The notes: generated by a model from the letters alone, not told the origin. A DNA stretch of 47,421 bases from Myxococcales bacterium (GCA_009692425.1 SHZF01000035.1:1-47421), one strand, 5' to 3'; counted from the first letter of the stretch, positions 3,077-45,400 are shown. Numbers and translations are program-made.

Positions 3077-3262
3077 CAGCAGACGGCGGGTGGGGCGACG
3101 CCGGCTCAGCCGTCGTCTACGCCGCTCAGGGCGTCGTCGGCCGTCCAGGGGCAGGTGCGCGGAAAATCCTGACGCAGACGGCCCGTCTCGATGACCGCAA
3201 ACCGCACGGCGTCGGCGTAGTCCTCTTCCAGGCCGAGGCCCAGTTCGCGGTGCAGGCTGGGA

Positions 3263-3326
3263 CTGTCCTTGAGCAGATTCAGCAAGCTGTTGCACTGTCC
3301 TTGAGCAGATTCAGCAAGCTGTTGCG
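3263..3326. repeat. Perfect tandem duplication of a 32-bp unit (ctgtccttgagcagattcagcaagctgttgc) in the acnA/putA convergent intergenic region
   Basis: Unit at 3263-3294 repeated at 3295-3326 with a single terminal mismatch (a/g). Directly visible in the sequence. Confidence 0.85.
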
Positions 3327-3394
3327 CTGCACATCGATGGTCGCCTGCCACGAGCGGCCGCGCAGGTCTGGCTGCTCGCGCCACTTCAGCAGGT

Positions 3395-3450
3395 GCATCA
3401 GCATCCACCAGCCAACCTTTCCCGAACGCCGAATTCGGATGCAGTTCTCT
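3395..3450 (-). repeat. Partial, inverted copy of the 3' portion of the ~140-bp intergenic repeat family (see 18748, 22126, 38234)
   Basis: cccgaacgccgaattcggatgcagttct (3421-3448) is the reverse complement of agaactgcatcc(c/g)aattcggcgttcggg in copy B (22215-22243). The flanking aaaggtt(g/t)gctg also matches. Contains the CCGAATTCGG palindrome. Confidence 0.6.
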
Positions 3451-3509
3451 GCGTTCAGGAGGTTGGCGGTCAACGCCTGGGCGCGTCCGCACCAGTGGCT
3501 CCTCGACGT

Positions 3510-6500
3510 CTAGCCATTGCCGCCCAAAGGCGCCCCATGCCGCATCGTGTTCACCGCGACCGTGCGCGCGTGCAGGTGTGCCTTCAGGATGCCGTCCCAA
3601 TCCGGCACGCCCGGCAACGAACCGTCGGCGTGCACGGCCCGCAGGTGGCGGCAACCGGGCGGCTGCGCGACGCACCAGGGCAGGGCGATGCTCCATACGT
3701 CGGCAGGGCCGTCGAGCACCACCGTTGCGAGCGCCGGGTCGAGCAGCAGGGCGCGCAGTGGCCCTGCGGCCGCCACGTCGACCACCTGCCACGGTGGCGT
3801 GTCGAGGTCGGCCCACGCGGCGTCGAATGCCCGCCATGCCTCGCCGGCAACCGGTGCCAACGCCACGATGCGCACGGGACAGCCCGCCGCCGCTGCGCCC
3901 AACGCATGGGCCAGGGCCTGTGGAGTCACGAAGCTGCGGCCAGCCAGGACGACAGTGAGCCCGCGCGGCAGGTTCCACAGCGTGTATGTGCGCTGGCCCG
4001 GGATCGGGTGCGTCGGTTCGCCGGCGGCGCGCAATCCGTCGATGTGGCGCGCGCAGTGGCGTACCATCGTGTCCGCAACGGCACGCAAGTCGAGGTCGAT
4101 CGCGCAAACGGGCAGGGTGGCCAGGGCGCGCTGCAGGGCGCGGGCGTGGGGCAGGGAAGCGACGGGCGCCGGGTACGCGGACTCGGCCACCTCGCGAGGT
4201 TCGGGCGGCCCGGGCAATTCGGCCAGCACGGAGAGCGCGGCAGCAGCGAGGGGCCGAGCCGCGGGCACGGTCGCAGAACGGCAGAATGCGTCGAGGTAGT
4301 CGGGGCCACCGGCCTTGGGGCCCGTGCCCGACATCCCGTAGCCACCGAACGGCTCGACGGCCACGCGCGCGCCGGTCAAGGGGCGGTTGACATAACAATT
4401 GCCCGCCGGCAGTGCGGCCACGACGGCGGCGACCTCGTCGTCAGACTGGGCAAAGACGCCGCCCGTCAGCGAGTACGCACCGGCGCGGACCAAGGCGAGG
4501 GCCTCCTCGATGCCGACGACTGGAATCACGTGGACGATGGGGCCGAAAAGCTCTGTTTCGGCAAGGCTGCCGGGGCGCAGCGCTTCGGCGACGGAGACGA
4601 CCGCAACGACGGGGCCGACTTGCCATCCCAGGGCGCCGCTGCCTCGCGCGTCAACGACCGCCCGATCGACGACGACCCGGCCACCGCACGCCGCCGCTTC
4701 GTCGGATACCCGCCGCGCCGCGGTCCGCAGGCGGTCGCGGTCGTCGGAGGTAATGACCGGGTTGACGCGTACGCCGGGTCGTTCTGCTGGGCCGACGCGC
4801 AAGTCGGCAGCGGCGCGCGCAAACCGTGCCACGAAGGGTTCCGCCACGCGAACGTCGACGAGGACGCGGGACAGTGCTGAACACTTCTGGCCCGCGTGAC
4901 CGAAGGCCGAACGCAAACACGCGCTGACTGCCTCGTCGAGATCGGCCGTCGCCGTGACGAGCGCAGCGTTCTTGCCGCCCATCTCCGTCACCGCGCGCCG
5001 CAGCCACGGGCCGTGCGGGCGCGCACCGATCGCCGCGTGGATGCGACGACCTACCGCCATCGATCCGGTGAACACGGCGCCACCGATGCCGGGATGGGCC
5101 ACGAGCGCTGCGCCGACCGACGGCCCATCGCCGGGCGCGTGCTGGATGGCGTCGTCCGGCATTCCCGCAGCGCGCAGCAACGCCACCAGGCACTCGGCGA
5201 CCAGCGGCGTCTGTTCTGCCGACTTCAGCACGACCGCGTTGCCGGTGACGAGCGCGCCCGCCACCATGCCGGTCGGGATCGCGAGCGGAAAGTTCCACGG
5301 CGCGATCACGGCCACCACACCGACGGGAGCCACGCCGGTGGCCGAGAGGGCGACCGGCCCTGCCGCACGATCGATCGCCACGCGGGCGTAGAACTGCAGG
5401 AAGTCGATCGCCTCGTCGACGTCGCCGAGCGCCTCGCCGCGCGCCTTGCCCGCCTCGCGCAGCACGAGCGCCGCCCACGCATGGCGGTCGGCACGCATCC
5501 GCTCGGCCGCCGTCACCAGCACCGCTGCCCGCGCCGGGGCGGCCACGGCGCTCCACACAGGCGCTGCAGCCTGGGCGCGCGCTATCAACAGATCGACATC
5601 GCCTGCCGTGCACGTGCGCAGCCGGCCGAGCGTGCGCTCAGGCTGCGAAGGCGATTGGATGTCGAGCGCGGGCCCGCTGCGCCCCGGCCGTGGCGGCGGC
5701 ACCGCTTGCAGGCTGACGAGCAAGGCGTCGGCGACCAACGCAGCTTCGAACGCGGCCCGGTGCTCCGCCAGGTGGAGGCGCACGGGCGCGACGTTGAAGA
5801 ACCCCGGCGTGTCAGCGCGGTGCGACGCCCCGCCCAGGAACTTGACCTGGCAGAGACCGTCGCGCGCCGGCTCCTGCTCCAAGGTGAGTGCCAGCGCGGG
5901 CGACACACGACCCGCCACTACGTCGGTGCCGTGGCGCGCCTGGGTCAGCACTCCCGCCTGAGAGCTGTTCTCGAGAATGCGGCGCACGAGGTACGCCATT
6001 CCGACCAGTAGCGAGCCGACGGGGACGTAGGAGCGCACGGCCCAACCCTGCCGGTGCATCGCCGTCGCCAGCGCCTCGTAGGTGGCGTGCAACACCTGGT
6101 GCTCGATGGGTGGCGCCGCAGGATGCAGTTCGGCGCGCGCTGCCTCGGCGAATGCATGGTCGCGCAAGTTGTGGCTCGCAACACACAGGTGGATCGCGTC
6201 GCCGGCCTCGAGGAGTCGCACGGTGAGTGCCTGGAACAACGCGTCGGTCTCCGCTTTGGCGAGAAACTGCGGGGCCGGGTGGTCGTGGGCGGTCGCTTCG
6301 GTCGTTTCGGCATCCCAGTAGGCGCCTTTGACGAGCCGCACGGGCAGGCGCACGGCACGGGTCCGCGCAAACGCCACCACGGCATCGACATGGGCGGGCG
6401 CGTCGCGCAGGTAGGCCTGCACCACGATGCCGACGCCGCCCCAACCGCCCAGATCCGGCGTGGCCAGCGCCCGACGCAACATCGCGACGCTCAGGTCGCG

Positions 6501-7823
6501 CGCCGGGTAGTGTTCGGCGTCGAGCGTCATCCCGACGCCGTGCTGGCGGGCGTGGCGCAACACACGCAGCAGGCGCGGGCCGACCCGGGCCCAGACGCCG
6601 TCCGGGTCGTCGGGGTCGAAGTCGCTGCACAGGGCACTGACCTTGATGGACACATGCGCCCGCTCGAGACCGGCGGCGTTGCGCGAGGCGGGCCGGCTCG
6701 CGCCATGGGCGTCGCTCCCGCCGTGGCGGGCACCCAGGCCATCGACGAGGGCCAGCACCCGCTCGGTGTACCGATCAGCTTCGTCTTCGCTGACCACGAG
6801 TTCGCCCAGCGGGTCGAGCGTCGCATCGCGCCCCGTCGCCCACAGCCCCTGCAACGCCGCGCCCGCCTCCGCCATCGTCTCGCCCGCTAGGAACTGGCGC
6901 GCCAACCTGCGAACTGCGGCGCGCGTCAGGCCGGCAACCCACGCCAGGGGAAGGAGTCGGGACCCGCTGTCGGCAAGCCGTGCTGCGAATTCGAGGGCAT
7001 TCGGCAGCGCCCCCCACTCGCCAGTCACGCGATCGCGCCGTGCCACGGCGGAGTCAGCCAGCATCCGGCGCAGCGTTTCGCGCAGCAGCAGCACGACTTC
7101 GCCGCCGTGTCGGTCGTGGTCGAGTGCCGGGAGCGCCGCCACGAACCGCAGCGCGTGGACGCGCAGTACCGCATGACGGCCCTGCAATTCCAGGCCCCAT
7201 TGCGCCACGCGCTCCGCGAGGCGATGCCGGTGACGCGCAAGGCCGAGCGCCAGGGCACTTGCGATGCGCGCACTGGTCGCGAGAACGCGGGCGTGGTCCG
7301 GTTCGGTCGGGTCCAACACGGCGAAGAGGCCGTGCCTGGCGACCACCGTCGCAATCTCGCGCGGCGCGCTACCGAGCGCGGCTTGCTGCCAGGCCGCCAC
7401 CAAGCCAGCTAGGGCTCCCGCGTCTGGCCCCAAGGCGCCGAGCACCATGGACTCGCTGGCAAAACGTGGCGTCCCGACGGACAGCACCAGCGCGCCTTCA
7501 TCCACCGCCACGCTGCCAATCCAGCCCTCGACATCGACCCACGTGCGCCACGGCGAGCGGACGTCGGGACCGCCGACGCAGGCAAGCCGATCCGCCAGCG
7601 CAGCGAGCGCAACCGTCCGCAGGGTTCCGGCGCGCACGTCGAACCAAACGTCGGCATGGGCGCACCACACGCGCAGGTTCCAAACACGACCGCCCAGGTT
7701 GAGCCGCGCGGCCTCGACATCGACACGGATATTCGGGAGGGACGCGGTAAGGATCGTGTGCTGAAGTTGCATGACCCGCTCCCGACGCCGCGCGGAGGAT
7801 CGCGCTCCGGGCTGCGGAGTCAA
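3510..7823 (-). CDS. putA: Bifunctional proline dehydrogenase / L-glutamate-gamma-semialdehyde (P5C) dehydrogenase PutA, with a long N-terminal arm and a C-terminal ALDH-like extension
   Basis: PRODH barrel region (MTLDAEHYPARDLSVAM..., VASHNLRDHAFAEAARA, GMAYLVRRILENSSQ) is followed by an ALDH domain (VIAPWNFPLAIPTGMVAGALVTGNAVVLKSAEQTP, EMGGKNAALVTATADLD, GQKCSALSRVLV, EPFGGYGMSGTGPKAGGPDYL). The true start may be the internal ATG at 7772 (MQLQHT...) rather than 7823. Confidence 0.85.
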   Translation of the reverse strand: MTPQPGARSSARRRERVMQLQHTILTASLPNIRVDVEAARLNLGGRVWNLRVWCAHADVWFDVRAGTLRTVALAALADRLACVGGPDVRSPWRTWVDVEGWIGSVAVDEGALVLSVGTPRFASESMVLGALGPDAGALAGLVAAWQQAALGSAPREIATVVARHGLFAVLDPTEPDHARVLATSARIASALALGLARHRHRLAERVAQWGLELQGRHAVLRVHALRFVAALPALDHDRHGGEVVLLLRETLRRMLADSAVARRDRVTGEWGALPNALEFAARLADSGSRLLPLAWVAGLTRAAVRRLARQFLAGETMAEAGAALQGLWATGRDATLDPLGELVVSEDEADRYTERVLALVDGLGARHGGSDAHGASRPASRNAAGLERAHVSIKVSALCSDFDPDDPDGVWARVGPRLLRVLRHARQHGVGMTLDAEHYPARDLSVAMLRRALATPDLGGWGGVGIVVQAYLRDAPAHVDAVVAFARTRAVRLPVRLVKGAYWDAETTEATAHDHPAPQFLAKAETDALFQALTVRLLEAGDAIHLCVASHNLRDHAFAEAARAELHPAAPPIEHQVLHATYEALATAMHRQGWAVRSYVPVGSLLVGMAYLVRRILENSSQAGVLTQARHGTDVVAGRVSPALALTLEQEPARDGLCQVKFLGGASHRADTPGFFNVAPVRLHLAEHRAAFEAALVADALLVSLQAVPPPRPGRSGPALDIQSPSQPERTLGRLRTCTAGDVDLLIARAQAAAPVWSAVAAPARAAVLVTAAERMRADRHAWAALVLREAGKARGEALGDVDEAIDFLQFYARVAIDRAAGPVALSATGVAPVGVVAVIAPWNFPLAIPTGMVAGALVTGNAVVLKSAEQTPLVAECLVALLRAAGMPDDAIQHAPGDGPSVGAALVAHPGIGGAVFTGSMAVGRRIHAAIGARPHGPWLRRAVTEMGGKNAALVTATADLDEAVSACLRSAFGHAGQKCSALSRVLVDVRVAEPFVARFARAAADLRVGPAERPGVRVNPVITSDDRDRLRTAARRVSDEAAACGGRVVVDRAVVDARGSGALGWQVGPVVAVVSVAEALRPGSLAETELFGPIVHVIPVVGIEEALALVRAGAYSLTGGVFAQSDDEVAAVVAALPAGNCYVNRPLTGARVAVEPFGGYGMSGTGPKAGGPDYLDAFCRSATVPAARPLAAAALSVLAELPGPPEPREVAESAYPAPVASLPHARALQRALATLPVCAIDLDLRAVADTMVRHCARHIDGLRAAGEPTHPIPGQRTYTLWNLPRGLTVVLAGRSFVTPQALAHALGAAAAGCPVRIVALAPVAGEAWRAFDAAWADLDTPPWQVVDVAAAGPLRALLLDPALATVVLDGPADVWSIALPWCVAQPPGCRHLRAVHADGSLPGVPDWDGILKAHLHARTVAVNTMRHGAPLGGNG

Positions 7824-17402: not shown

Positions 17403-17406
<4 letters not shown>

Positions 17407-18713
17407 GACCGGCGGGGCCTCCGGGGCCGCGTGTGCGGGTTGCTTCGTGGGGCCGCGCGAGGAGTTCGTTGGCCCGCGTCCTGCAGGCGATCGACGGGGC
17501 CCACCGCGAGGATCGATTCGTCGATGCGGACCACGGGCGTGCCGGGCACCCGCACGCCTTCGCCGCGCCAGGCATTCGCGACGGCCGCGGCGACGGGATC
17601 GACCGCCGCCCCGCGCATTTCTGCGGTCGTCCTTCCTACGGGCCCACACAGGTAGCGCCGCGCCACCTCTCCGTCGCGCATGAGGCCGCCGATCACCCGA
17701 TAGGACAGCGCCGCGGTTGCAGAAAGCGCCGCGGGCTCCGCCAGCGCCGTGGTCGCCGGGAGCGGGGCGGCCCCTGGCGCCACGATGAGGTGCGAAGATT
17801 TCAGCGTGCGGCGCGCGTGGCCGATCGCGCGGTCGAGCGCCACGACCTGGGGCGGCCGCTGCCACGGCGCCTCGGCGTGGCACCAGTCGCGCATCGAGGG
17901 TTGGTGCAGCGGGCACAGACCCTGCGTGAAGCAAGGGCTCGTCGCGCGACCGACCGCACCCGCCAGCAGGTGGGCGCGCACGTCGAGCAGGGTGTGCGAG
18001 GCTCGGCGCGTCGCCGGCTCCACCAACACGAGGCGGCCGTCGGGACAGAGGTGGTGGCGCACCAGCGTCTCGGCCCACGCACCGACGCTCACGGCCTTGC
18101 GGCCGCCTTGATCCCACTCGTTCAGCGTGTTCAGGCAGACGATGACGTCGAACGCGCCCAGATCGCGCAGCAGGCGACCGTCGCGCAGGTTGCCGACGAG
18201 CGTCCGGACCTGGGCTTGGGGCCGCAGGGTCCGCAGCAGTGCGACGCCGTCGTCGAGTGCCGCGCGACAGCCATCGACGGCCACGATGTCGAGGGCGTGG
18301 GCCTGCGGGAGTGCGAGGGCCAGCGCCAGCGACGCCGTCAAGGGCCCGGCACCGAGATCGAGCACCCGCAGGCGCAACTGGCTGTGCAGGCGAGCCAACT
18401 CTCCGGCGCGCTCCAGGACCGACAGCAAGGTCGCAACGCCTGTCGGCACGAAATACAGCAGGTACGCAGCCCGCCAGCGCGGCTGCGACAGGTAGCCGGG
18501 CGGCAGACCCGAGCGCACCGAGGTGAACGCTTCGGACAAGTCGGCCACCGCGCCTGCATGCACGGATTCGATGGAGTGGCCGCGCCGCGCGGGCGGGGTC
18601 AATGTCGCCCGCACCAGCCGCTCGATGGTGTCCGGCAAGCCGCCGAGGTCTGCCGTAGCGTGCGCCACCTCCACCGCTCCCCTTGCCGCCAAGCTGCGTC
18701 CCTGAGTGCCCAT
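17403..18713 (-). CDS. Class I SAM-dependent methyltransferase, Rsm22-like
   Basis: [22 protein letters not shown]...[22 protein letters not shown] (motif I hh(D/E)hGxGxG)...[13 protein letters not shown]. 436 aa. Family assignment from overall architecture only. Confidence 0.45.
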
Positions 18714-18747
18714 CTTGGGCAGGCGCGCCCAGCCTGGTCAACCCCGA

Positions 18748-18890
18748 TCCGCCACCTTCGGCACAGCTCTTCGTTGTCGCTGCGGAATCGGCGTTCGAAG
18801 TACCGGGTGTACGTCTTCAGGCCGATTCCTTGCTCGGGCTTGATCTGCATCCGAATTCGGCGGCCGGCGATGGGAGTCGGTGGTGGATCC
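18748..18890 (+). repeat. Copy A of a ~140-bp intergenic repeat family (rsm22-like / cNMP-binding divergent intergenic region)
   Basis: gatccgccaccttcggcacagctcttcgttgtcgctgcgg...taccgggtgtacgtcttca...ctgcatccgaattcggcggcc...tggatcctgg aligns with copies at 22126 and 38234 (shared 5' core ccttcggc(a/g)ca..t.ttcgt(c/t)gtt, shared 3' part with the CCGAATTCGG palindrome). Confidence 0.7.
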
Positions 18891-18955
18891 TGGCCAACTG
18901 TGCCTTGCGCCGGGCAGATGCCTCGCGCTACCTTGCGGGCCGTACCGCCCGCGAG

Positions 18956-19537
18956 ATGAAGCCGATGGCCGACGCGCGTGTCCTTCCGGTGTTGCACCTG
19001 ATCAAGCCGTTGGGTTCGCTGCCCGAGGCCGACCTGCAGGTTCTCGCCGACCTGTTGCAACCGAAGTTCCTGCGTGCGGGCGAGGTCCTGTATCGGCAGG
19101 GCGACAGGGGCACCTCGATGGCGATCCTGGCGGACGGCATCCTCCGCCTGCAGTGGCAGGACCCGCGGGGCGAAGTGGCGCCACTCGGCAGCCTGAAGCG
19201 CGGGGACTTCGCGGGCGAGATGGCCCTGCTCGATCCAGCACCGCGCTCGGCGACCGTGCTCGCCGCTTCGGAGTGCCTGTGCTTCGAGCTGACGGACACC
19301 GATCTGGTGTTGTTGATGTGCCGCAGCCCGGCCGCCACTTCGCGCCTGGTATCGGCCATCACGCACGCGCTGACGAAGCGGATTCGCGCAGCGAACGAGC
19401 AACTTGAGAGCATCGTGCGAGCCAGTGCCCAGGGCGGGCGCGCCCCGTCGCAGCCCATCCGGCTGCCTGACGATGCGATCGGCGCGCGTCCCGACAGCGT
19501 GATGTCGCGGCTGTGGGCGAAGATCACCGGGGGGTAA
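18956..19537 (+). CDS. Standalone cyclic-nucleotide-binding (cNMP/CAP-effector) domain protein, no DNA-binding HTH evident
   Basis: FLRAGEVLYRQGDRGTSMAILADGILRL...LGSLKRGDFAGEMALLDPAPRSATVLAASECLCFEL is the G(E/D)xAL...R(S/T)A cNMP-binding signature. Start moved to ATG 18956 because the upstream part of the track ORF is the repeat element. Confidence 0.75.
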   Translation: MKPMADARVLPVLHLIKPLGSLPEADLQVLADLLQPKFLRAGEVLYRQGDRGTSMAILADGILRLQWQDPRGEVAPLGSLKRGDFAGEMALLDPAPRSATVLAASECLCFELTDTDLVLLMCRSPAATSRLVSAITHALTKRIRAANEQLESIVRASAQGGRAPSQPIRLPDDAIGARPDSVMSRLWAKITGG

Positions 19538-19540
19538 GGC

Positions 19541-20233
19541 ATGGCAAGTTCCGGACTCCACCTGTTGCCTGCCCGCCATGGCTTCGCGCCGGACGATCTG
19601 GAGTTGCTCACGACCGTCGGGCCAACCCGGCAGTTTGCCGTCGGCACGTACCTTTGCGAGCAGGGCAAGCCCGCGTACTGCGCGTTCCTGCTGCTGGCGG
19701 GCGAGGTCGAGGTGCTGCGTGAGGTCGAAGGGCGCACGATGTCGCTGGCCAAGATGGGGCCCGGCGAAATCGTGGGCCAACTGGCGCTCGTCGATGGCGC
19801 GCCGCGTGGCGCCTCGGTGCTCGTGCGGCGCGATGTCGAAGCCCTGCTGCTCATGCGCGACATGTTCGAAAAGCTGCTGGCGTCGCAGAGTCCACTCGCG
19901 CTGCGCTTCCAGCGCCAGGTTGCGGTCGCGGGCATTCGCCAACTGCGGCGCACGACGGAACGCTTGGCCCACGTGATGCTGGCATTGGAGCGCGAAACAC
20001 CGCGCACCGAGGAGGAGAGGGCGAGCCTCGTGCGACGGCGTCGGGACAGTGCGATAACAGCCCTGGCTGCTCTCGAAGAGCCGGGCCTCGACATGGAACT
20101 GGACCAGGAAGTGTGCGACGTCACCGACAGAACCCTCGCCATCCTCCCCCGCGGGTTCATGCCGGAGCCGCCGATCGACCAGGTGATGGCCCCTACCGCC
20201 ATCGCGACGCTTCGGAGCGGTCCTGGCAAATAG
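19541..20233 (+). CDS. Second standalone cyclic-nucleotide-binding domain protein
   Basis: YLCEQGKPAYCAFLLLAGEVEVLREVEGRTMSLAKMGPGEIVGQLALVDGAPRGASVLVRRDVEALLL is the cNMP-binding beta-barrel signature. 4 nt downstream of the first one. Its stop codon lies inside a 33-bp tandem repeat. Confidence 0.75.
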   Translation: MASSGLHLLPARHGFAPDDLELLTTVGPTRQFAVGTYLCEQGKPAYCAFLLLAGEVEVLREVEGRTMSLAKMGPGEIVGQLALVDGAPRGASVLVRRDVEALLLMRDMFEKLLASQSPLALRFQRQVAVAGIRQLRRTTERLAHVMLALERETPRTEEERASLVRRRRDSAITALAALEEPGLDMELDQEVCDVTDRTLAILPRGFMPEPPIDQVMAPTAIATLRSGPGK

Positions 20234-20300
20234 ATGGCGACGCTTCGGAGCGGTCCTGGCAAATAGTATGGCGACGCTTCGGAGCGGTCCTGGCAAGCAG
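20201..20300 (+). repeat. 33-bp tandem repeat x3 (at(c/g)gcgacgcttcggagcggtcctggcaa(a/g)(t/c)ag)
   Basis: Units at 20201-20233, 20234-20266 and 20268-20300 (1-bp spacer). Units 1 and 2 each end in TAG. Each unit encodes (I/M)ATLRSGPGK, i.e. the C-terminal decapeptide of the preceding cNMP-binding protein is re-encoded twice after its own stop. Confidence 0.85.
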
Positions 20301-20308
20301 GGGCAGCG

Positions 20309-22042
20309 CTACGGTTGCTGCCCTGCCGCGGCAGGCCCACTGGCTGCCCCAGCCGGGTCGACCTCCGCCGCCACCGGGTCGGTGGTGGTGACGGGGTCGT
20401 CGGCGTCGTCATTCCACACGAATTGGCGCCGGTGCACGTCCCACCAGCGCGCCCAGGCCCGGTGCTTGCGCAGGGCGGTCGCGTCGAGGGCGTCCGGCCC
20501 ACGCCCGAGAAGGTGGCGCAGCATCGCCTCGGCGTTGGCCGCCAGCCACGGTTGTCGTGCGGTCAACTGGGCCACCAGCCGCGGCACTGCCTGCTCCGGT
20601 CGGTCGAGGGCGTGCAGCCCGCGCAGCGCAAAGCCGCGCACCATCCACTGCCAGCGCCCGCGACCCCCATCGCGTGCCAGCCAGGACCGGGCGGCGTCGG
20701 CATCGGCGAACCCGCGATTGGCCAGGTGTTCCAAGGTCTGCAGCGCCGCGCGTCGGGCCGGCGGGCTCGCGTCGTCGAGCACATCGACGAGCGACTCCGC
20801 ACTTTCTTCGAGCAGCCACGGTCGCACCGCGCGTGCCGCCGCCGTGCGCAATTCCGAACGCGCGTCCGCGTCGAGCGAGGTGCCCAGTTCCCCGACGTCT
20901 GGACCCAACAGGGCGAGCACCTCGGCCGCGTGCTCCGGGCGCGCGACCTGCAGCGCCGTCACCGTCAGATCGCGCACGACCTGCGCTTCGGGCGCCGCAC
21001 GCGCCTGGTCCATCAGCAACGGCCACGCCATCGGAGAGGCCATGAATGCCAGCGCGTCACGCGCACGGGAACGCAGCCCCGGCTCGTCGCGCGCGGCGGT
21101 CCACGCCAGCGCCTCGACGGCGGCCCGGCTCTCTCCCTGAAACCACTTCAGCTTCTCCACCGCGGCGCCACGTCGCTCGACGGAGGGCTCGCCCAACTGC
21201 GCGACTGTACGCTGGACCTCGGCCCGCACCTCATGGTCCCACCCCTGCACCCACGGCCAGCGCGGGTCATCGTCGCTGCATCCGGCGAGGCGATCGGCGC
21301 GGCTGCAGTAGATGCGAAGGTGCAGGTGGTCATCGTGGCGGCCGGCGTGACCGGGTTCGTGCAGGACCATGCGGGCGCGCTGGACGATCCACTCCGGTTC
21401 ACCGATGGCGCGGGCCCGCGACAGCAACTGCTGCCGCAACGGCTCCGCCAGGTACATGTGTTGCACCTGCACGTGCGAGTCGGTGAGCAGGGCGCGCACG
21501 AGGTCCCAACTGCGCGCGACATCGAACACGACCGGCGTTCGCTTCCAGCGACCGCGGCCCGACGAGTCTACGGATACGAATTCATCGGGAGATAGTGGCT
21601 TTCCATTCAGATCCGTCAGGTACAACAAGATGTCTGCATCGCGGCCGGATCGATGAGAATGGCTCCACCTCATCTCGCCGCCCTCCTGCAGCGAGAGATT
21701 GCCGATGCGCACCGCCGTGCCCGCGTGGTCTGGGTTGCGTTGCAGTCCCGCCGACAACCGCACAAGCAGTTCGACCAGATCGCGCGTGGCCCACCCGGTG
21801 CCCCGCTGCGACACGACAGACAACCGCCACAGCCCCGGAGCGCGCCGTGGCAGGTCGACGCCGCTGACCAAGGCGCCGTGCTCCGAATCGCCCAGAGACA
21901 GGGAGGGGCGGTCGGTCGCGTCGAATGCGGGGCCCGCAACAACCTGGGCCACCACCGGGCGCCCGCAGAATAGCCAGCCCAGCACACACGCCCACGGCGC
22001 GACGAACCTGACGACGGTGTGACGCGTGAAGGGCCGGGCCAT
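20309..22042 (-). CDS. Penicillin-insensitive murein endopeptidase (MepA / peptidase M74)-like periplasmic protein with a long alpha-helical repeat C-terminal extension
   Basis: Signal peptide (MARPFTRHTVVRFVAPWACVLGWLFCG). RIGNLSLQEGGEMRWSHSHRSGRDADILLY matches the MepA HxSHxxGxDxD metal-binding motif. ~300 aa of C-terminal Leu/Ala/Arg-rich helical repeats. Start trimmed to ATG 22042. Confidence 0.5.
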   Translation of the reverse strand: MARPFTRHTVVRFVAPWACVLGWLFCGRPVVAQVVAGPAFDATDRPSLSLGDSEHGALVSGVDLPRRAPGLWRLSVVSQRGTGWATRDLVELLVRLSAGLQRNPDHAGTAVRIGNLSLQEGGEMRWSHSHRSGRDADILLYLTDLNGKPLSPDEFVSVDSSGRGRWKRTPVVFDVARSWDLVRALLTDSHVQVQHMYLAEPLRQQLLSRARAIGEPEWIVQRARMVLHEPGHAGRHDDHLHLRIYCSRADRLAGCSDDDPRWPWVQGWDHEVRAEVQRTVAQLGEPSVERRGAAVEKLKWFQGESRAAVEALAWTAARDEPGLRSRARDALAFMASPMAWPLLMDQARAAPEAQVVRDLTVTALQVARPEHAAEVLALLGPDVGELGTSLDADARSELRTAAARAVRPWLLEESAESLVDVLDDASPPARRAALQTLEHLANRGFADADAARSWLARDGGRGRWQWMVRGFALRGLHALDRPEQAVPRLVAQLTARQPWLAANAEAMLRHLLGRGPDALDATALRKHRAWARWWDVHRRQFVWNDDADDPVTTTDPVAAEVDPAGAASGPAAAGQQP

Positions 22043-22125
22043 GAGCGTGCGTAGCCTCCCGCGTGTCGTGCCACCGGGCAGCGCCAACCTTGCCCGCCCG
22101 CGCCCTTGAACGCAACGGGAACCCC

Positions 22126-22270
22126 CGATCTGCTGCCTTCGGCGCATTTCGTCGTTGCCGTCGTCGGTTGGCGGCTCGGCGTACCCGGTGTACGGCTTCA
22201 CCGTCGACCTCCTAGGCGCCTAGAACTGCATCCCAATTCGGCGTTCGGGAAAGGTTTGCTGATGGACCCT
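22126..22270 (+). repeat. Copy B of the ~140-bp intergenic repeat family
   Basis: gatctgctgccttcggcgcatttcgtcgttgccgtcgtcgg...tacccggtgtacggcttca...agaactgcatcccaattcggcgttcgggaaaggtttgctgatggaccctggg. Its end overlaps the first ATG of the downstream hypothetical ORF. Confidence 0.7.
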
Positions 22271-29450: not shown

Positions 29451-30443
29451 TCAGCGCCACAGTTTGTCTGGGCGCACGCTCATTTCGAGGTAGAGCGCCG
29501 TGTAGCGATTGAAGAAGGGAGCCTGCGGAGTCGAATCGGGGCGCAGCGCGTTCGAGGCGGTCTCGGCACCGAGGCTGACGGTCAGCGCCGGCGCGGCCGT
29601 CCACGCAAGCGCTACGGTGTACAGGGCCGTCACGCGGAGGTTCGGGTCGGAAGGGTCGGGCGGCACCACGTCGCCCGCGTCCGTGTGTGCGGTGGCGAGC
29701 GGCGGCAGCACGTCGTGGACCGCGCCGGCGGACGCGGACAGTGCGAGCGAATCAACCGGTGCCCACCCCAGGCTCAGGGCGTTCTGGAAGCGCCACACTG
29801 GGTTGCGCACGCCCGTGTGGCTGTAGCGGCCGCAGCCTGGGAGGTCGACGGCGCATGCGCTCACCCACGGAGTCGCGGTGCTGGCGGTGGTGTAGCGGTA
29901 CAAGGGGGCCACCGCCCGCGCCGCGACGCCGACCTCGAACGGGCCATGTTCCCACGCCACCTGCAGCCCCAGCGACGGCGCGAACCGCAGCGTGCGGGCG
30001 ATCGAGGCCTTGCTGGTCGGCAGGGCGAATTGGCCATCGAGCCGCACATCGACCCCCAGCGCCTCGCTGTGCCACGGCCGGCCGCCGAACGCGATGGTGG
30101 TGTCGGTCAGCGTCCATTCGCCGCGCGCGGTGGTCCAGTCGGCGTCGGTGATCTCGCGGGCCACGCCGCCACCGGCACGCCCGAACCAGTGCGGGCCCAG
30201 CGCATAGTGCAAGGTGGCGGCGACGGCGCCCACCCAGGTCGGATTCCAGGTCGGTTCGGCGTCCTTGGCAAAGGTGACGGCCGACGCGGAATGGCGCAGG
30301 GCGACGGAAGTGCCGGCGAACGGGCCGGCCGGGACTTCGGCGTGCGCGGTGGCGGGGCACGCGGCGATGGCTGCCAAGCAGAGGCAGCGGGCGGCGCGGA
30401 GGGTGTGAGCGGCGCGGAGGATGTGGGCGGCGGTGCGCAGCAT
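29451..30443 (-). CDS. Hypothetical secreted protein, probable outer-membrane beta-barrel, 23 nt upstream of the metalloprotease gene
   Basis: Signal peptide MLRTAAHILRAAHTLRAARCLCLAAIAACPATAHA. The remainder is Ala/Thr/Gly/Trp-rich with alternating hydrophobic pattern (TWNPTWVGAVAATLHYALG, LGLQVAWEHGPFEVGVAARAV). Start trimmed to ATG 30443. Confidence 0.4.
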   Translation of the reverse strand: MLRTAAHILRAAHTLRAARCLCLAAIAACPATAHAEVPAGPFAGTSVALRHSASAVTFAKDAEPTWNPTWVGAVAATLHYALGPHWFGRAGGGVAREITDADWTTARGEWTLTDTTIAFGGRPWHSEALGVDVRLDGQFALPTSKASIARTLRFAPSLGLQVAWEHGPFEVGVAARAVAPLYRYTTASTATPWVSACAVDLPGCGRYSHTGVRNPVWRFQNALSLGWAPVDSLALSASAGAVHDVLPPLATAHTDAGDVVPPDPSDPNLRVTALYTVALAWTAAPALTVSLGAETASNALRPDSTPQAPFFNRYTALYLEMSVRPDKLWR

Positions 30444-30821
30444 GGGGCGGCGAGAATAGGCCGCAGGCGGCGGGGTGTACAGCGGGGCGGTGCGCCCCTG
30501 ATCCGGCGACAAGGGCGCATCTGCGCTGACATCAAGGCGAAACCGGCGCTTGCAGTACCACGTGTACAGCGTCGCGCCGATGTCTCAGGGGGAACTGGTC
30601 GACCCATTGTACTACCGCAACGGAATCGTCCACGCCGATGTAATCCGCGCTGGCGTCGAGGTCGCGCACGGCCTGGTCGGTCCAGACCAGTTCCAGCGGT
30701 TGCCTTGGTTCAGCGTGCTTCAGGCTGCTCCCTGCCCAAAGCGGTGGATCCGGGCCGCTTGAGCGCAACCGTGCCGTCGTGCACACTCCGGCCCTGCTTG
30801 CCGGAGGCGCCGATGGCCCGA

Positions 30822-44308: not shown

Positions 44309-45400
44309 ATGTCGACCGAACATTTAACCATTTTGGTCGTCGATGACTCGCCGGACAACATCGCCATCTTGGCGGATGCGCTGGCGGATCGCTACCGCGT
44401 GCGCGCAGCGACTTCTGGCCAACACGCGTTGCGCATCTGCCGCAGCGACAATCCGCCCGCGTTGGTCTTGCTTGACATCATGATGGACGAAATGGACGGC
44501 TTTGAAGTCTGCCGTCACCTCAAAGCCGACGCGCAAACTTCAGACATTCCTGTCATTTTTGTGTCAGCTCTGTCTGACCCCGTCGACGAGGAGCGCGGCT
44601 TTGCCCTCGGCGCCGCCGACTTTATCAGCACGCCCGTCAGTGTGCCCAAGGTCCGCCATCGGGTTCAGGTTCACCTCGATTTGCGCCAGTCGCGGCGCAA
44701 GCTGTTTGAGTTGAACTCAAAGTATTTAAATTATTTGTCCCCGCAGTTGTCTAAAGCACTGCAGACGGGCATTATGAACGCGACCGTGCAAAATCGCCGC
44801 AGGCTCCTAACGGTGTTTTTTTCCGACATTGTCGGCTTTACGAGCCGTGTCGAAAAACTGGCGCCGGAAGCGTTGACCGACCTGCTCAACGGATATTTCA
44901 GCGCGATGGCCGAAATCGTGGCCAAGCACGGCGGAACGCTAGACAAGTACATTGGCGATGCCATCATGGTATTCTTCGGCGACCCCGACAGCAGAGGCGC
45001 GAGCGCCGATGCCCGCGCGTGCATCGCGATGGCCGTGGAGATGCAAGACGTCATCGAACTCATGTCCGCGGCGTGGCATGGCCACGGCATTGCTGAACCG
45101 TTCCAAGTGCGCATGGGCATTGTGACCGGTGATTGCACCGTTGGCAGCTTTGGCAGCCCGCACAAGTTGGAATATACGGCCGTTGGCAGTTCGGTGAACT
45201 TGGCGGCGCGGCTACAGGCCAACGCGTTGCCGGGCCGCATCCTGGTGTCCGCCAGCACCCATGCGGTAGTCCATGACGTGCCGCTTGGAACGGTTCAGTT
45301 CATCGCGGTCAAAGGCTTTGCTGAGCCCGTGCAAGCCTATGAAGTGTTGCGCACCGCTGGTGTCCGCCAAATTTCCAAGCCAGATTCTGGCGTCCGCTAA
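44309..45400 (+). CDS. Response-regulator receiver domain fused to a class-III adenylate/guanylate cyclase catalytic domain
   Basis: REC: [18 protein letters not shown]...[24 protein letters not shown]...IPVIFVSA (phospho-acceptor Asp in LLDIMMD). CHD: [18 protein letters not shown]...[20 protein letters not shown]...[16 protein letters not shown]...[14 protein letters not shown]. Confidence 0.85.

Follow-up and report, generated by a model that had tools for sequence, protein, structure and literature searches.

A short tandem repeat that starts inside a gene and runs on past its stop codon raises the question of whether the repeat acts on the gene product or is an ordinary duplication that happens to include a stop. 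Such a repeat is found in a stretch of 47,421 nucleotides from a Myxococcales bacterium (GCA_009692425.1 SHZF01000035.1:1-47421; G+C 68%); this whole stretch is referred to as the window, and positions are counted from its first letter. Two adjacent genes for cNMP-binding (CNB) proteins, here called g1 and g2, are followed there by a tandem array whose first unit is the end of g2 itself. A previous reading made from the DNA alone (the sequence-only reading) had proposed that slippage in the array gives g2 a phase-variable C-terminal tail or creates a reinitiation peptide, and that the pair takes part in a local cAMP circuit. The features on which the question turns are the following.

17403 to 18713, minus strand: Rsm22-like methyltransferase gene, divergent and upstream of the pair, syntenic in the related contigs L001 and L003.
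18956 to 19537, plus strand: g1, a 193-aa stand-alone cNMP-binding protein (PF00027, E 8e-19, 67.9 bits, no other domain).
19541 to 20233, plus strand: g2, a 230-aa stand-alone cNMP-binding protein (PF00027, E 5e-17, 62.0 bits).
20201 to 20233, plus strand: repeat unit 1, the last 10 sense codons of g2 and its TAG (ATC..AAATAG; IATLRSGPGK*).
20234 to 20266, plus strand: repeat unit 2, intergenic (ATG..AAATAG; MATLRSGPGK*).
20267, plus strand: a single extra T between units 2 and 3.
20268 to 20300, plus strand: repeat unit 3, intergenic and with no stop (ATG..AAGCAG; MATLRSGPGKQ...).
20297 to 20326, no strand assigned: GC-rich hairpin with arms GCAGGGGCAGC / GCTGCCCTGC that spans the stop of the convergent peptidase gene (dG -21.4 kcal/mol, z -1.75).
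20309 to 22201, minus strand: convergent gene for a Peptidase_M74 (MepA-like murein endopeptidase) with HEAT repeats, present also in L001.
44309 to 45400, plus strand: gene for a REC domain and a class III nucleotidyl cyclase (PF00072, E 1e-21; PF00211, E 4e-27).

The three units lie head to tail, and the repeat finder scores units 2 and 3 as 97% and 91% identical to unit 1. Tandem Repeats Finder (TRF) reports one array here (20204-20296, 98% matches) whose score of 179 is the best in the window. A 26-nt core, GCGACGCTTCGGAGCGGTCCTGGCAA, is exact in 3/3 units, with the differences confined to the unit ends; the window holds no other copy of the core at up to 3 mismatches, and 0 of 100 shuffles reached three matches. 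The sequence-only reading had described a 33-bp repeat in three copies, and the three near-perfect units are borne out, although the uniform period is not: the spacing is 33 and then 34 nt because of the extra T at 20267, which shifts unit 3 by +1 relative to units 1 and 2. Its other statements on the anatomy hold. The g2 stop TAG (20231-20233) closes unit 1, the repeat re-encodes the C-terminal decapeptide (with Met for the first Ile in unit 2), unit 2 is a 10-codon mini-ORF that starts on the next base after the g2 stop, and unit 3 lacks a stop, having CAG where units 1 and 2 have TAG. Unit 3 thereby opens a 290-codon ORF (20268-21140) that runs antisense to the convergent gene for the peptidase, with GC by codon position of 0.57/0.81/0.84, a non-coding pattern when set against the 0.74-0.76/0.47-0.54/0.81-0.83 of the real genes. 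Unit 2 is a chimaera that joins the ATG head of unit 3 to the AAATAG tail of unit 1. The C-to-G change that gives ATG in units 2 and 3, right after the stop, has no explanation beyond chance. Units 2 and 3 make up almost the whole of the 75-bp spacer that separates the g2 stop from the peptidase stop.

The history of the array is read from the orthologous sites. The closest orthologue of g2, protein P0002 (84% protein identity), is encoded on contigs L001 and L002, from two samples of one close relative. L001 has the gene order of the window, that is Rsm22-like methyltransferase, g1, g2 and convergent Peptidase_M74, and the spacer between the two stops is 36 bp in L001/L002 versus 75 bp in the window. 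A second copy of the gene end in the L001 spacer has no statistical support, since 1266 of 5000 shuffles equalled it in a local-alignment shuffle test; an ancient duplication shared with L001, which by eye would amount to about 1.5 copies (ATCAAGTAG...ATCAAGCAG), is rejected on this count. The only spacer element common to the window and L001 is the 5' hairpin arm CAAGCAGGG(G)CAGC (21 of 5000 shuffles equal). The unit 3 tail AAGCAG does resemble ATCAAGCAG in the L001 spacer, and given this resemblance an older partial duplication may have existed. In L003/L004, at 61% identity, there is no repeat at the g2 end. With no supported copy in either L001/L002 or L003/L004, the expansion is therefore specific to the lineage of the window, and the perfect cores indicate that it is recent. 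The tail that the unit encodes is poorly conserved: IATLRSGPGK in the window corresponds to VVTLRGGAIK in P0002 and in P0003 to a tail that is longer and looks unrelated. That stop-spanning repeats recur across the g2 family is rejected, since TRF on 53 related loci places none at a g2 stop; the nearest array to a g2 stop among these loci is a 15-bp repeat of 3.7 copies about 60 nt downstream, in L021. Downstream of g2 in L003 (~6750-6942) there is also an AT-richer stretch bounded by the inverted repeat CCCGGATTATTCACGA ... TCGTGAATGATGCGGG, which may be a small mobile element.

A tandem duplication or VNTR is defined by near-identical units that lie head to tail and are missing from the orthologous site, and the array, with no supported second copy in L001/L002, fits this definition. 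The explanation that we regard as likely, taken as a whole, is a young, lineage-specific and neutral tandem duplication that includes the stop codon, next to a g1-g2 cassette that would function as a two-CNB sensor. On this explanation the last 33 nt of g2, stop included, would have been duplicated in tandem as a small VNTR in this lineage, most likely by replication slippage or unequal exchange, for which a chimaeric unit 2 is expected. The extra copies sit in the convergent spacer, where they would be tolerated; that they are neutral is suggested by the absence of signals of function. The mini-ORF and the look of a stop followed by a restart are there because the C-terminal coding segment was copied together with its stop. 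The array resembles other short tandem duplications and VNTR minisatellites of bacteria in its near-perfect head-to-tail copies of tens of bp, its absence from the site in a relative and its chimaeric middle unit; it differs in that it spans a stop codon, so that the coding sequence is unaltered and the copies mimic a mini-ORF.

It is unlikely that the array is instead a functional non-coding element, whether by terminating transcription or insulating the convergent genes from each other or by offering sites for protein binding. Its place is suggestive, in that it fills the spacer between these genes, a small quasi-palindrome, CGCTTCGGAGCG, recurs in every unit, and a conserved hairpin follows unit 3. 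However, folding is no better than that of shuffles for the array (z -0.95) or for a single unit (z +0.10), there is no terminator-like or promoter-like site in 18500-20600 (terminators scanned on both strands), and the whole window gives 0 Rfam matches at gathering thresholds; a structured RNA or terminator is rejected on the folding and on the empty terminator scan. Within the sequences searched the unit is moreover found nowhere else: its core has no match in 185,579 species-representative genomes of GTDB (exact 24-mer), from which the source MAG is absent, or in JGI metagenome contigs (exact 22-mer), and a dispersed element of the REP or MITE kind is rejected because no copies beyond the three units occur in the window, the species-representative genomes or the JGI metagenomes. 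L001, for its part, has its 36-bp spacer without a supported second copy. In the hairpin itself the spacer arm, into which the tail of unit 3 runs, base-pairs with the final codons and the stop codon of the Peptidase_M74 gene. The hairpin has no T-run and so departs from the GC-rich hairpin plus U-run of an intrinsic terminator; it may be a U-less bidirectional terminator.

That a metagenome assembler created or miscounted the extra units is very unlikely. The window is a complete contig of an uncultured Myxococcales MAG, a second exact duplication, of 32 bp, breaks a gene on the same contig, and the number of middle units is not fixed by a k=31 graph. Against this stands an assembly made independently from run SRR8561390 at k=31 (contig L005), which has the same gene and whose contig breaks off precisely at ...GGCAAATAG. 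The stretch common to units 1 and 2 is 30 nt long (GCGACG...AAATAG), with C before it in one unit and G in the other and with A or T after it; units 1 and 3 alone share just 26 nt, and a two-unit structure would leave a k=31 contig unbroken. The break at the predicted de Bruijn branch requires the 30-nt share, the C- and G-prefixed units and the two continuations, and the reads therefore hold at least both of the junction types seen in the window. The repeat is thus present in the reads. The units also differ at their ends and by a 1-nt indel, unlike a pasted overlap.

The second duplication is an exact one of two 32-bp copies, 3262-3293 being repeated at 3294-3325, and it frameshifts a DUF29 gene (minus-strand ORF 3106-3473). 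Removal of one copy in silico gives a 111-aa ORF that matches DUF29 (PF01724) across the junction (E 2.8e-21); the duplication could mark a pseudogene, or be a variant within the population or a fault of assembly. TRF on 337 kb of related loci gives at least 8 near-perfect arrays (≥95% matches) with a period of at least 15, about one per 40 kb. Taken with the second 32-bp duplication, this density means that such duplications are ordinary in the clade, or in these assemblies. L021, from a related Myxococcales MAG, has an array of the same size class, 4.0 copies of 32 bp at 5287-5414 with 98% matches. Elsewhere in the window an 18-bp tandem repeat (30390-30452; 2.3-3.2 copies, 78-91% matches) lies in the minus-strand ORF 29451-30584 and probably encodes a short peptide repeat, its length being a multiple of three.

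The proposed phase-variable C-terminal tail, in which the array would be a contingency locus whose units recombine or slip and so switch the C-terminus of g2, meets the difficulty that the stop lies in unit 1. Three near-identical units are able to recombine, and a unit 1 x unit 3 deletion (67 bp) does alter the protein: in silico it is the only one that loses the stop, and it extends g2 to 510 aa, of which the last 280 are antisense to the peptidase gene. Deletions between units 1 and 2 (33 bp) or units 2 and 3 (34 bp) still give a protein of 230 aa ending ...ATLRSGPGK*, and expansions of the array leave the protein unaltered because unit 1 stays intact and keeps its stop. In a contingency locus a change in copy number alters frame or expression; here single-unit deletions are silent, as is every copy-number change other than the unit 1 x unit 3 deletion, and the sole variant product is a read-through in a frame with a non-coding codon pattern. 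The likeness to the phase-variable loci built on coding simple sequence repeats is that the repeat touches a coding sequence and that one recombination product alters the protein. The differences are that there are only 3 units, each as long as 33 nt, that the stop lies in unit 1 and most changes are silent, and that conservation is lacking and the alternative product is implausible. Units so long and so few are unlike known contingency tracts. The repeat is in addition absent from L001 and L003, and the g2 tail is poorly conserved and predicted to be disordered. A regulated C-terminal switch is unlikely because of the silent single-unit changes, the non-coding frame of the read-through and the variable, predicted disordered tail, and the contingency locus as a whole is judged very improbable.

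Least probable of all is termination-reinitiation, by which ribosomes that end g2 would restart at the adjacent ATG and release MATLRSGPGK as a free functional peptide: the ATG at 20234 does abut the TAG, and after the second stop a T and then the ATG at 20268 follow, but the only Shine-Dalgarno-like motif, GGAG, is poorly placed, at 16 nt ahead of each ATG, the closest relative (L001/L002) does not keep the mini-ORF, the peptide would copy a variable tail that is predicted to be disordered, and the third ATG opens the 290-codon antisense ORF with its non-coding pattern. Either form of the idea, a recombination switch in which a unit 1 x unit 3 exchange fuses g2 to an antisense extension or translation of the downstream units by reinitiation, would give a cyclic-nucleotide sensor a heritable on/off state or an alternative form, and the two together are thought highly improbable.

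The neighbouring genes bear on the proposed cAMP circuit. The convergent gene encodes a 630-aa protein in which Peptidase_M74 is joined to HEAT repeats, an architecture that is the same in L001. A REC-adenylate cyclase gene had been placed 24 kb downstream of the pair, and a gene for REC plus cyclase is indeed found there. A local circuit does not follow from it: the cyclase is ~24 kb off, with many unrelated genes between, and in the related loci L001, L003, L006 and L007 the genes called up to 5-6 kb from the pair include no cyclase.

Of more interest than the repeat are the two proteins. Each of them has one PF00027 domain, scoring well above the curated cut-off of 27.5 bits, and searches of Pfam and NCBIfam show no HTH or kinase domain in either, the NCBIfam matches being sub-threshold ones through the CNB domain. 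The description of the pair as two adjacent single-domain proteins with no output domain thus stands, and the domain search that the sequence-only reading had named among its checks, now run, gives no C-terminal HTH. The two proteins are only 26% identical. The g1 phosphate-binding cassette is canonical (GEMALLDPAPRSAT), and g1 is 32-81% identical to its orthologues in L001, L003, L006 and L007; its true start may instead lie at 18965 (ATG), which would match the orthologue in L001. In the window (19490-19537, ..SRLWAKITGG) and in L001, L003, L006 and L007 the g1-type C-terminus is conserved as (S/G)R(L/I)W(A/V/S)(K/R)(I/L)(T/S)xx, with a hydrophobic moment of 0.52-0.76. This motif resembles the amphipathic membrane-targeting helix of the MinD type, and by that analogy it may be a membrane anchor of the sensor pair.

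The g2 gene starts 3 nt past the g1 stop. In the AlphaFold model of its product the CNB domain (~17-115; pLDDT 84-96) is followed by long helices at 118-150 and 157-179 and by a low-confidence tail at 180-230 (pLDDT 40-56). Its cassette, GQLALVDGAPRGAS (residues 79-92, window 19775-19816), has Gln for the usual Glu and keeps the Arg, so that the PF00027 pattern G-E-x-A-L ... R-[STA]-A is rated as present in g1 and, with this Glu-to-Gln change, in g2. Q80 is nearly invariant among 19 g2-type sequences, and the Gln-type cassette may alter ligand specificity. Epac1 has the same Gln in its cassette, yet binds cAMP. The likeness of g2 to CRP/FNR transcription factors lies in the CNB domain and the long C-helix after it, and its best Foldseek matches are CRP-family structures; the difference is that g2 is without the C-terminal winged-helix domain, the model having two helices and then a disordered tail. 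Matches of g2 to CRP-family chains in PDB sequences stop at residue 146-152, that is after the CNB domain and the next helix, and low-rmsd Foldseek alignments (3-4.5 A) span only ~105-139 columns, whereas the longer ones to CRP structures have an rmsd of 9-13 A. A hidden HTH in g2 is ruled out by Pfam, NCBIfam, the PDB matches, the AlphaFold model and Foldseek together, and with no HTH g1 and g2 are therefore not ordinary CRP/FNR regulators. Nor are they the unusual effectors that they had been taken for, since the PDB already contains CNB proteins that stand alone (3gyd, 5d1i) and the pair is common in Myxococcales MAGs.

This frequency was established on 46 loci from species-representative genomes, almost all labelled as Myxococcales or Deltaproteobacteria MAGs. 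The g1 type lies directly upstream of the g2 type on the same strand in 36 of the 46, and at 7 of the 46 loci (L041, L044, L045, L048, L049, L050 and L051) the two types are found in one ORF; two PF00027 stretches are present in all four of the long, fused forms that were checked. The types are separate orthologue groups, with identities of 30-81% among g1-type proteins, 36-86% among g2-type proteins and 17-28% between the two types. The pair also recurs beside different neighbours, namely pxpA/pxpBC-like genes in L006 and Dus in L007. Conserved adjacency together with fusion is standard evidence for two proteins acting together. The pair is a conserved two-gene cassette that is sometimes fused, and the Rosetta-stone fusions in seven relatives suggest that in the window, too, the split pair functions as a single unit. 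The contigs L020, L022, L041, L048, L049 and L050 carry a CNB pair of Myxococcales type under the titles of Klebsiella pneumoniae, Enterobacteriaceae or Enterobacterales MAGs, labels that are probably wrong in the public records.

Such a unit points to a split two-CNB sensor resembling a PKA regulatory subunit (PKA-R). Most likely the long C-helices would hold the two proteins together as a heteromeric sensor of cyclic nucleotides with two CNB domains, both the heterodimer and its ligand binding being inferred. Since the CNB domains of g1 and g2 have no enzymatic or DNA-binding output, output would go through protein partners, and the sensor would act, like a split PKA regulatory subunit, on a partner by protein-protein contact. 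A precedent is CbpB of M. xanthus, a PKA regulatory-subunit homologue that, by the title of a 2009 paper listed in the references of PMC11139211, interacts with the Ser/Thr kinase SpkA; the literature recovered on stand-alone CNB proteins in Myxococcus held nothing else directly relevant. As far as that description goes, the cassette is like the CbpB-type PKA-R-like proteins of myxobacteria in having two CNB domains that lack an enzymatic or DNA-binding output and in the existence of fused g1-g2 relatives. It differs from them, on the same description, in that the window has two separate adjacent genes with a stop and a 3-nt gap between them, rather than two CNB domains in one polypeptide, and no adjacent kinase gene. 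A reading of g1-g2 as a split two-CNB receptor that is widespread in Myxococcota and so far uncharacterised, with a canonical and a Gln-type cassette and a putative membrane-targeting helix on g1, is more plausible than the reading of the array as a switch.

The repeat itself matters little, being most likely an ordinary short duplication rather than a switch, and it carries a caution for genome scans: a tandem duplication that includes a stop codon automatically mimics a stop/restart mini-ORF while the protein is untouched. The pair is the more interesting result. It suggests a heteromeric cyclic-nucleotide receptor across uncultured Myxococcales, which would be unsurprising given the known PKA-R-like proteins of myxobacteria, and which is of modest interest and worth biochemical study.
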